Assembly: GCF_001677475.2 (NCBI RefSeq) | Contig: NZ_CP015229.1 | Origin: Escherichia coli | GTDB taxonomy: Bacteria > Pseudomonadota > Gammaproteobacteria > Enterobacterales > Enterobacteriaceae | Reading direction: 5' to 3' (one strand) | DNA length: 64,000 nucleotides | Part shown: positions 38,998 through 41,268 of the stretch, piece after piece | Position numbering within the stretch: the stretch's first letter is position 1 | How the letters are laid out: every line of letters starts with the position of its first letter | Position numbers and translations under genes: made by a program | Notes under the pieces: generated by a model | What the model saw: only the letters and a program-made list of their open reading frames with translations | Databases searched by the model: none | Told to the model about the DNA's origin: nothing

Positions 38998-39076
38998 TAA
39001 TGGGTGCGGCTTGATGCCCTCACCCCGGCCCTCTCCCACAGGGAGAGGGTGAAAACATGTTGATAAGGATAAAACA

Positions 39077-39796
39077 ATGGCTACCCCACACATTAATGCA
39101 GAAATGGGCGATTTCGCTGACGTAGTTTTGATGCCAGGCGACCCGCTGCGTGCGAAGTATATTGCTGAAACTTTCCTTGAAGATGCCCGTGAAGTGAACA
39201 ACGTTCGCGGTATGCTGGGCTTCACCGGTACTTACAAAGGCCGCAAAATTTCCGTAATGGGTCACGGTATGGGTATCCCGTCCTGCTCCATCTACACCAA
39301 AGAACTGATCACCGATTTCGGCGTGAAGAAAATTATCCGCGTAGGCTCCTGTGGCGCTGTTCTGCCACACGTAAAACTGCGCGACGTCGTTATCGGTATG
39401 GGTGCCTGCACCGATTCCAAAGTTAACCGTATCCGTTTTAAAGACCATGACTTTGCCGCTATCGCTGACTTTGACATGGTGCGTAACGCGGTAGACGCGG
39501 CTAAAGCACTGGGCGTTGATGCTCGCGTTGGTAACCTGTTCTCCGCTGACCTGTTCTACTCTCCGGACGGCGAAATGTTCGACGTGATGGAAAAATACGG
39601 CATCCTCGGCGTGGAAATGGAAGCCGCTGGCATCTACGGCGTCGCTGCAGAATTTGGCGCGAAAGCCCTGACCATCTGCACCGTGTCTGACCACATCCGC
39701 ACTCACGAGCAGACCACTGCCGCTGAGCGTCAGACCACCTTCAACGACATGATCAAAATCGCACTGGAATCCGTTCTGCTGGGCGATAAAGAGTAA
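39077..39796 (+). CDS. deoD: Purine nucleoside phosphorylase
   Basis: 239 aa, full-length. Confidence 0.95.
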
Positions 39797-39825: not shown

Positions 39826-39858
39826 TGAAGCCGGAGCGGGAGACTGCTCCGGCTTTTT
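39826..39858 (+). terminator. Rho-independent terminator of the deo operon
   Basis: aagccggagc-gggagact-gctccggctt hairpin followed by ttttt. Confidence 0.7.
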
Positions 39859-39956
39859 AGTATCTATTCATCAATAGCAACTGATTTATAGATTTACTAT
39901 TATTTTTCATATGGATAGAAAATAAAATCCATTCAAGTATCTATTCACGAATCTAT

Positions 39957-40220
39957 TCATTTATGTTCAGCCGTCATCCAGGAAGGGCATATCAGCAACT
40001 CTGGTGGACAACCATAAATTTCTGCCATTTTGCTTTTGATGTTTGAGCTAAGTCGTTCCGTCTTTTCGATCTGTTTTAGAGAATTAATCGAGATACCTAA
40101 CATTTTACTTACTTCAGCAAGCGATAATTTATGCCTGATACGCACGGCGGCTAGCCAGGAAATACGCTGGCTGAACATTAAATTGATAATCTCCCGTTCC
40201 TGGTTTTCCAGATCGATCAT
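39957..40220 (-). CDS. Small XRE-family helix-turn-helix regulator (Cro/CI-like)
   Basis: 87 aa; HTH segment LSLAEVSKMLGISINSLKQIEKTE; SD aggaagg before the ATG; 31 bp downstream of the lplA stop on the same strand. Confidence 0.6.
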   Translation of the reverse strand: MIDLENQEREIINLMFSQRISWLAAVRIRHKLSLAEVSKMLGISINSLKQIEKTERLSSNIKSKMAEIYGCPPELLICPSWMTAEHK

Positions 40221-40251
40221 ATTTCCTTCCTTGGATATTTTAATCAGCGAG

Positions 40252-41268
40252 TTACCTTACCGCCCCCGCTATCCACGTCGACAACTCCCGTAGCTCTTTT
40301 TCCTGGTCCGGGAAGTCAACCAACAGCGCTTCGCACTCCTGTTGCAGCATATCCGCGCGGTACAGGCAGCCTTGCAGTCGCCCGGCGAGGGCTTCCAGCG
40401 GCGCGGGGTTGAGGCTGTCGGTAAACACCTGGGCGCGGGTGATATGGCCTTTTTCAACGTCGAAATGCAGTTCCACGCCGCCCCAGGTGAAGCGTTCATC
40501 CAGCAGATGCGAGAATGCCGGAGCCTGACCGAAGTTCCACTCCCAGCTACTCTGACGGGCAAAGGTTTCGGCGAAGTTTGGCAAGTCTGGCGTTTTGTCC
40601 GGGGAGATGATTTCCGCTTCCACGCGCTCGCCATAATGGGCGAAAAAGGCCTCGGTTATGGCCTCGCAAACCTGCTCATGGGTGATCCCCGGCAGCAGCT
40701 CGGTGAGGTTGGTCACGCGGGAACGCACTGAGGTAATGCCTTTCGCCGCCAGTTTCTTTTTATCCGGATTGAGATAGTTTGCCAGGCGGCTAAGGTCGGC
40801 ATTAAGCAGCAAGGTGCCGTGGTGGAAGCCACGATCTTTGGTTTCGCGATAGGCCGAGCCTGAGACTTTGCGGTCGCCTTCGGCGGTTTTCACCACCAGA
40901 TCGTTACGTCCAGACGCTTCGGCGCTGACGCCGAGCGCGTTCAGCGCATTGAGCACAATCGACGTGGAGATGGTTTTATCGTACTCCGGCTTTCCAGCCA
41001 TAAAGGTAAAACAGGTATTACCGAGATCGTGGAACACCGCGCCGCCACCGCTACTGCGCCGCGCCAGGCGGACGTTATCTTCTTCCATCCGCCGGGTATT
41101 ACACTCTTTCCACGGGTTTTGCGCGCGACCAATCACTACCGTGTCGGCATTGCGCCAGAGAAACAGAACGCGCTGCGTGGCGGGCATCTGGCGAAAAATA
41201 CACTCCTCCACCGCCAGGTTAAACCACGGGTCGTAAGAGTCAGAGATGAGCAGGCGTAATGTGGACAT
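40252..41268 (-). CDS. lplA: Lipoate-protein ligase A
   Basis: 338 aa, full-length. Confidence 0.95.

Follow-up and report, generated by a model that had tools for sequence, protein, structure and literature searches.

Replacement of the hipH toxin ORF by a reverse-oriented, antitoxin-like gene beside a conserved box array between deoD and lplA of Escherichia coli

Layout of the deoD-lplA interval and its two alleles

The DNA analyzed here, which we call the window, is a stretch of 64,000 nucleotides from Escherichia coli in which deoD (39077-39796, plus strand) and lplA (40252-41268, minus strand) form the conserved left and right flanks of a short interval. Downstream of deoD, a terminator hairpin, GCCGGAGC...GCTCCGGC followed by a run of T (39830-39858, plus strand), can be read from the sequence; it is common to both allele types described below and was not called by a simple terminator scan. 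The DNA between this terminator and the next gene is AT-rich and carries four copies of a short direct repeat on the plus strand, which we number R1 to R4. The distal copy, R1 (39862-39870), matches ATCTATTCA exactly and lies 65 nt upstream of R2, as in K-12. R2 (39927-39935) is degenerate, reading ATCCATTCA with one mismatch to ATCTATTCA, and R3 (39939-39947) and R4 (39951-39959) are again exact. The whole 64-kb window contains three exact matches to ATCTATTCA, a number reached by 0 of 100 shuffles (shuffle mean 0.32). A preliminary description of this DNA had counted the three copies correctly, but the range it gave for them, 39867-39960, starts about 5 nt off, and it missed the one-mismatch copy. 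Between R1 and R2 lies a 56-nt spacer (39871-39926) that is as long as its K-12 counterpart but diverged from it. A TTTTCA within the spacer (39904-39909, plus strand) is kept, and locus comparison finds it conserved in both allele types and across genera.

The gene that follows is encoded on the minus strand (39957-40220), begins with ATG, and specifies an 87-aa protein of XRE fold that is identical to RefSeq WP_000566150.1. This is the small helix-turn-helix (HTH) ORF that had been described as lying 31 bp past lplA, and it is present as described: the HTH gene is downstream of lplA on the same strand, across a gap of 31 bp (40221-40251) in which a terminator scan found no terminator and in which a strong Shine-Dalgarno region, CCAAGGAAGGAAAT (40224-40234, minus strand), can be read ahead of the ATG. 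At the other end of the gene, the final TCA of R4 is its TGA stop codon on the minus strand. On the plus strand, 3 nt past R4, a relic ATG (39963-39965) occupies the position of the hipH start codon, and homology to K-12 stops just beyond it.

The K-12 order given in the preliminary description is correct: hipH (also named yjjJ; 443 aa, plus strand) stands between deoD and lplA, and the stop codons of hipH and lplA abut. The two alleles are homologous throughout the repeat region, up to a point just after the hipH ATG; past the cassette, homology resumes at the lplA stop codon, which is exactly where the replaced segment stops. In other words, the HTH allele is one in which the hipH ORF, from just past its ATG to the lplA stop, has been replaced by the reverse-oriented 87-aa gene. 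The shared flank was detected in 5416 of 5426 complete E. coli genomes, with the HTH segment in 4073 and hipH in 1348 of the same 5426, these two counts coming from separate genome lists with a small overlap possible. The earlier suggestion that a kinase and a lone HTH gene alternate at this locus is borne out by these counts. The hipH allele is found in backgrounds such as K-12 and ST131 (EC958), and the HTH allele in O157:H7, BL21 and ATCC 8739. The flanks of strains YJ4 (hipH) and AVS0282 (HTH) are nearly identical, indicating that the cassettes have been exchanged by homologous recombination. Balancing selection, considered on the basis of flank divergence, was set aside, as the flanks are mosaic with no consistent allele association.

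Variation in the region extends beyond the cassette. The last ~100 bp of lplA (40252-40350) have 5-14 differing sites per 100 relative to other strains, whichever cassette these carry, and the next few hundred bp of lplA are usually less variable. The deoB-deoD spacer (38998-39076) is 79 bp long in the window and contains a palindromic unit, CCCTCTCCC...GGGAGAGGG; K-12 and EC958 have a different spacer of 56 bp with another hairpin, making this a second variable intergenic segment in the deo operon. Individual strains also carry disrupted cassettes: in E. coli MB22 (locus L007), an IS5-like ISKpn26 element sits inside the HTH gene, and in E. coli WB61 (L005), hipH is cut to its first ~64 codons, with NN in the record at the junction.

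The box array upstream of hipH

All four copies of ATCTATTCA in K-12 are perfect: one comes just past the deoD terminator, and the other three form a tandem set whose end is 3 nt away from the hipH ATG. The array is found both in K-12 and at distant hipH loci, so the repeats did not come with the HTH gene, and the tie between repeats and regulator that the preliminary description had implied gives way to a different one: the repeats are the ancestral upstream array of hipH. We refer to the ATCTATTCA array as HipH boxes, a name coined in this analysis. Its layout is constant, with one distal box, an interval of 63-66 nt including a spacer with a predicted sigma-70 promoter, and two to four boxes at a 12-nt period, usually with 0-4 nt from the last box to the ATG; the distal-proximal distance of 63-66 nt holds over the intact arrays in other genera. 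The array of the window fits this layout, with boxes starting at 39862, 39927, 39939 and 39951 and 65 nt from R1 to R2. The hipH ORF that would follow 0-4 nt past the last box is absent from the window, where only the relic ATG is left.

To survey the gap across genera, we compared loci from 80 species, each anchored on LplA. E. albertii, a Citrobacter, Kosakonia, Pseudocitrobacter, Leclercia and Silvania have hipH in the deoD-lplA gap, each with an array. The gene is also syntenic in Salmonella, Erwinia and Pantoea, beside deoD or ytjB-serB, and there 65-66 nt separate the distal box from the first proximal one; the array is present in each. Across Enterobacterales, hipH is the ancestral occupant of the position between deoD and lplA/ytjB. 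Most genera have an empty gap of 43-100 bp, and no boxes were found in these empty gaps among the LplA-anchored loci of the 80 species. The 76-bp gap of E. whittamii (L008) keeps ATTCATCAAT right past the terminator, apparently the end of R1 and the start of the spacer, and the empty state in that species is thus a secondary deletion. Other Enterobacteriaceae (L031, L037, L039, L061, L064, L074 and L085) have unrelated small inserts in the gap, which by eye include REP-associated tyrosine transposase-like ORFs, fimbrial-like secreted proteins, a lipoprotein, a membrane protein and a 406-aa secreted protein.

The array extends well beyond this order. A metagenome scan for two boxes 3 nt apart returned 120 contigs, at least 27 of which encode hipH homologues (34-48% identity, GC 0.43-0.67); the scan selected on boxes, most of the 120 matches are unrelated tandem repeats, and the hits beside hipH alone were used. 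In the homologues examined, the start codon follows the proximal boxes, usually at a distance of 0-6 nt, and most have a distal box as well. As an independent test, two hipH genes from Rhodanobacteraceae were picked with protein similarity as the sole criterion, and each has boxes at -89, -24 and -12, i.e., with a 65-nt distal-proximal distance, in unrelated gene neighborhoods. All these hipH homologues keep a predicted recognition helix of the form SQ(A/P)(T/S)xSR in proteins that have otherwise diverged. Because the boxes are conserved together with this invariant helix, we infer that the HipH boxes most likely serve as an operator that HipH binds with its own N-terminal HTH. Tagged YjjJ gave no binding sites in a ChIP-exo experiment (bioRxiv 10.1101/2021.06.10.447994), which is a weak argument against HipH binding the boxes.

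Published work on K-12 places promoter elements within the same module. The K-12 hipH promoter has been predicted as TTTTCA-18-TCTATT (PMC3946193), which makes the conserved TTTTCA its -35 element and puts its -10 element in box R2; by genomic SELEX, the deoD-yjjJ spacer of K-12 was assigned both a sigma-70 RNA polymerase site and H-NS (PMC3946193). At the -10 position within R2 (39928-39933), the window reads TCCATT versus TCTATT in K-12. Consensus scans of the module called no promoter, the sole minus-strand match overlapping the start codon. Reg-Seq identified two repressor sites at the yjjJ promoter, one of them attributed to MarA (PMC7567609), and a MarA site in the K-12 spacer is plausible. 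As an identity for the boxes themselves, we considered TorR, ArgR, OxyR, DnaA and MarA sites, and none fits across the distant arrays, in which the 3-nt spacers vary. We also looked for inverted partners of the boxes in the spacer; one pair is 83% complementary, but matches of comparable quality occur in K-12, where the DNA is just as AT-rich, and neither L021 nor L024 conserves the pair. Our literature searches returned nothing relevant on the repeat sequence or on the hipH/HTH dimorphism, and in the literature searched we found no earlier description of what appears to be a deeply conserved hipH operator array.

The 87-aa protein and its relatives

Pfam HTH_3 matches residues 23-76 of the 87-aa protein with 29.4 bits, above the curated cut-off of 23 (E=8e-7), and Sigma70_r4 gives a marginal cross-match (25.3 bits versus 24.1); no curated NCBIfam family fits. 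The AF2 model is confident (pLDDT 88.7) and predicts a generic XRE five-helix fold with an extra N-terminal helix, and its closest PDB structures are CylR2, C.BclI, SinR, P22 c2 and 434 Cro, with target-normalized TM-scores of 0.6-0.77 and no Foldseek E-value below 0.019.

Among 5.8 billion proteins searched, orthologues came only from Escherichia and Shigella, and a full HMMER scan of 1.84 billion cluster representatives gave 38 matches. Four lineages have an orthologue of 86-87 aa shortly after lplA, namely a divergent Escherichia lineage (87% identity), Superficieibacter (54%, by tblastn), an enterobacterial MAG (51%, by tblastn) and a metagenome contig (44%). Each of these genes has its stop codon within the last box, the relation to R4 described for the window holding in L009, L021, L024 and L088.

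The nearest non-orthologous relatives are proteins of 95-133 aa found in metagenomes, plasmids and phages. Most of them combine a RelB-like N-terminal region with a C-terminal HTH_3 domain, and in six of the six contexts examined a RelE/ParE toxin gene lies directly upstream of the related antitoxin. Alignment covers the C-terminal ~75 residues of these relatives only, as the 87-aa protein does not have their N-terminal domain. It has also lost the Q-S...S-Q recognition-helix pattern of the antitoxin relatives, and its orthologues differ from one another in this helix (I-N-S-L-K-Q, P-D-A-L-K-R, P-E-S-L-A-R and A-E-A-L-K-R). No toxin gene stands immediately upstream of the 87-aa gene, where lplA is 31 bp away, and no kinase operon partner is present, the neighbors being lplA and deoD. 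Judged by these alignments, the 87-aa gene derives from a solo antitoxin, its closest relatives being the C-terminal, DNA-binding halves of RelE/ParE-associated antitoxins. The preliminary description had suggested that the regulator may be antitoxin-like, which agrees with its nearest relatives being RelE/ParE-linked antitoxins, but a kinship with HipB or Cro/CI is not supported: against HipB, BLASTP returned no alignment, and hhalign recovered only a generic 31-column HTH core.

The operators of such proteins offer a further comparison. HipB recognizes the operator consensus TATCC-N8-GGATA, and no match to this consensus was visible on reading the module of the window. The RelE/ParE modules in L093, L094 and L098-L101 have CTTAT-N4-6-ATAAG palindromes in their promoter regions, which are probably the operators of the related antitoxin family; the module of the window contains no such palindrome.

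Three other candidates were rejected in the course of this comparison. The HTH gene is not an inverted copy of the N-terminal HTH of hipH, as the two have no BLASTP similarity and the latter is a MarR-like winged helix versus an XRE domain. A seemingly 72%-identical homologue, P0033 (L091 and L092), proved to be a C-to-T converted artifact (P to L, S to F, R to W/C and A to V changes), its source probably being bisulfite-type reads assembled as a genome. Finally, a small plus-strand ORF starting at the relic ATG is open for 27 codons in Escherichia, but its start and frame are not conserved in L021 and L024, and we treat it as a by-product of the antisense frame.

The retained array and the role of the HTH gene

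Boxes in HTH-type loci have 0.44 mismatches each, as compared with 0.35 in hipH loci and 1.27 in gene-less remnants, and their conservation in HTH-type loci holds across genera with saturated synonymous sites. In a set of 11 E. coli sequences of the HTH type, segregating sites number 0.070 per nt in the non-coding module, versus 0.161 at third positions of the HTH gene and 0.278 at third positions of lplA. Of the four HTH-type lineages sampled, three conserve the module in the absence of hipH, and L088 keeps one box only. Since the boxes are conserved where hipH is gone, something must still be using them there. Gene conversion from hipH alleles as the force preserving them was rejected, the shared tract being only ~40 bp and lying between allele-specific sequences.

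The explanation that we favor, with a probability of roughly 0.4 for the whole, is that alleles were swapped long ago at a conserved toxin locus and that this left the 87-aa protein acting on the box and promoter module retained from hipH. The structural and evolutionary part of this account, i.e., the swap itself, is very likely, and the mechanistic part is less likely than not. The 87-aa gene would be expressed on a read-through transcript from lplA, and its product may be a small DNA-binding repressor on the retained module. The retained promoter would run antisense to the HTH gene and lplA, and the 87-aa protein might either keep this orphan convergent promoter silent or make up a sense/antisense switch together with it. 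Several points speak against such a mechanism. The recognition helix has lost the pattern of the antitoxin relatives, and its residues vary among orthologues beside boxes that do not change; palindromes are the usual targets of XRE dimers, and the boxes are direct repeats; L088 retains the gene with a single box; consensus scans called no promoter in the module; ChIP-exo of tagged YjjJ gave no sites; and the ~1705 genomes with the nonsense allele described below keep four perfect boxes. That a RelE/ParE-type antitoxin DNA-binding domain was captured at the hipH locus and then retargeted to the HipH-box array seems unlikely to us. If it were so, a toxin and an unrelated repressor would be long-lived alternative alleles under one conserved operator, and the HipH boxes would be a family-wide autoregulatory operator.

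It is possible, though we doubt it, that the 87-aa protein is instead a solo XRE regulator or a protein-binding adaptor with targets elsewhere and that the boxes are kept for an unrelated reason; this could be binding by a host factor, or a functional antisense RNA that starts from the retained promoter and controls the HTH gene or lplA. A recognition helix that is variable and partly acidic beside boxes that are invariant would be expected under this alternative, as would the persistence of the gene without the array in L088 and the conservation of the -35 TTTTCA and its spacing in HTH-type loci of three genera. Host factors are also on record at this site, with MarA and a second repressor on the K-12 yjjJ promoter (PMC7567609) and H-NS at the spacer (PMC3946193). 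However, the boxes decay where both genes are gone, which ties their value to a cassette gene. A host factor common to Enterobacterales and Rhodanobacteraceae and always present with hipH is less parsimonious than the invariant helix of HipH, and selection for promoter activity sits poorly with the box overlapping the -10 element, which has a -10-weakening change in two of three genera.

Whether the HTH gene has any function left can be asked of its own sequence evolution. Between genera, dS is 1.25-2.07 for the HTH gene, i.e., saturated, and 0.90-1.48 for lplA, and dN/dS of the HTH gene is ~0.25-0.3, with some pairwise values of 0.56-0.60. Within Escherichia, 18 synonymous and 21 non-synonymous changes segregate over ~54 and 207 sites, respectively. 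Together, these values indicate that the HTH gene is old and under purifying selection. Of eight further E. coli loci, two, namely L105 and L106 (E. coli 2013C-4830 and 602354), have a nonsense allele, Q49* (CAA to TAA in the recognition helix; equivalent to 40074-40076 of the window), on a haplotype that also encodes L16 and F57 in the HTH gene. Using a 171-nt query running from R2 to codon 49 at 99% identity or higher, we found the Q49* haplotype in ~1705 of 5426 genomes, i.e., ~42% of HTH-type genomes and 31% of all, and the HTH gene is thus dispensable in a large clade. In this haplotype, R2 is perfect (ATCTATTCA, with TCTATT at the -10 position; equivalent to 39930 of the window), giving four perfect boxes, and the intact Escherichia alleles sampled have ATCC or ATAC at R2 in 10 of 10 cases. 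The association of a perfect R2 with Q49* comes from a single lineage, and Q49* appears to be one haplotype as opposed to many independent hits.

These data bear on another alternative, which we consider unlikely, namely that hipH was destroyed by the insertion of a RelE/ParE toxin-antitoxin system of which the HTH gene is the slowly decaying remainder, with little or no function at least in E. coli, and that the locus is heading for the empty state seen in most genera. The spread of the Q49* haplotype, the IS5-family insertion within the HTH gene of one strain, the E. whittamii gap that is empty save for its R1 fragment, like the empty gaps of most genera, and the higher pairwise dN/dS values of 0.56-0.60 would all be at home in such a scenario. 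In contrast, an ORF kept intact at 86-87 aa in four lineages at a dS of 1.25-2.07 and a dN/dS of ~0.25-0.3, the within-Escherichia ratio of synonymous to non-synonymous polymorphism, and a nonsense allele that is apparently a single haplotype all argue against it. Lastly, it is very unlikely that the 87-aa protein is a trans-acting antitoxin or immunity factor binding HipH or another HipA-family kinase: the 88-aa XRE protein HipB does rescue YjjJ toxicity in trans (PMC9948734), the gene occupies the exact position of the toxin gene and its relatives are antitoxins, but the HTH gene and hipH are nearly mutually exclusive in E. coli, specific similarity to HipB was found by neither BLASTP nor hhalign, the RelB-like N-terminal domain of the relatives is absent, those relatives pair with RelE/ParE toxins and not with kinases, and the nonsense haplotype in ~42% of HTH-type genomes weakens the idea further.

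Returning to the allele swap, the locus is more than a lone regulator: a solo gene of antitoxin descent has replaced a toxin ORF, precisely and long ago. About three quarters of sequenced E. coli have no hipH and have an antitoxin-like gene instead, ~40% of those with the nonsense allele, so hipH results from K-12 and ST131 do not transfer to most strains, O157:H7 and BL21 included. The three natural genotypes (hipH, intact HTH and Q49*) are ready-made comparisons. The HTH allele with its retained control sequence gives a direct handle on the control of the poorly understood hipH toxin, and the box array, present from Enterobacterales to Rhodanobacteraceae, makes with the invariant helix a testable candidate operator for HipH autoregulation. 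The conservation of the boxes without hipH remains a real puzzle.

Among the closest known systems is the monocistronic HipH/YjjJ locus itself (Gerdes et al. 2021, PMC8262856), described as a HipA-family toxin without an adjacent antitoxin, the control of which was stated to be unknown. The HTH allele shares with it the chromosomal slot and the upstream box and promoter module, but HipH/YjjJ is a 443-aa kinase with a MarR-like winged HTH, encoded on the opposite strand and with no similarity to the 87-aa protein. HipB resembles the 87-aa protein in size (88 aa) and XRE fold, and it is reported to counteract YjjJ/HipH (PMC9948734), but the 87-aa protein has no BLASTP similarity to it, with hhalign aligning 31 columns, and has no kinase partner. 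Antitoxins of RelE/ParE-first modules supply the best non-orthologous matches from the 1.84 billion representatives and the plasmid and phage collections (31-38% identity over residues 3-77), examples being those of Pasteurella phage Pmp14 (XYO02381.1), Leclercia plasmid pZ96-1_2 (WP_225988006.1) and a Serratia plasmid (WP_129941838.1), and they have the motifs VSLLAAWRI and LAE(I/V)Y.C in common with the 87-aa protein. They differ in being ~120 aa long with an N-terminal domain of ~45 aa and in having a toxin, both of which the 87-aa protein lacks, and the latter has an altered recognition helix and an extra C-terminal tail, LLICPSWM..EHK. With regard to the box array only, parC/ParR of plasmid R1, an iteron-flanked autoregulated promoter, is similar in having short direct repeats of helical-scale period on both sides of a promoter, and the HipH boxes differ from it in their 12-nt period and their arrangement as one distal and two to four proximal boxes. 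Solo or orphan antitoxins and anti-addiction modules, as known generally from type II toxin-antitoxin systems, are likewise toxin-less chromosomal genes of antitoxin families under selection. What sets the present case apart from them is that the orphan has replaced a toxin of an unrelated family and adjoins that toxin's putative operator array.
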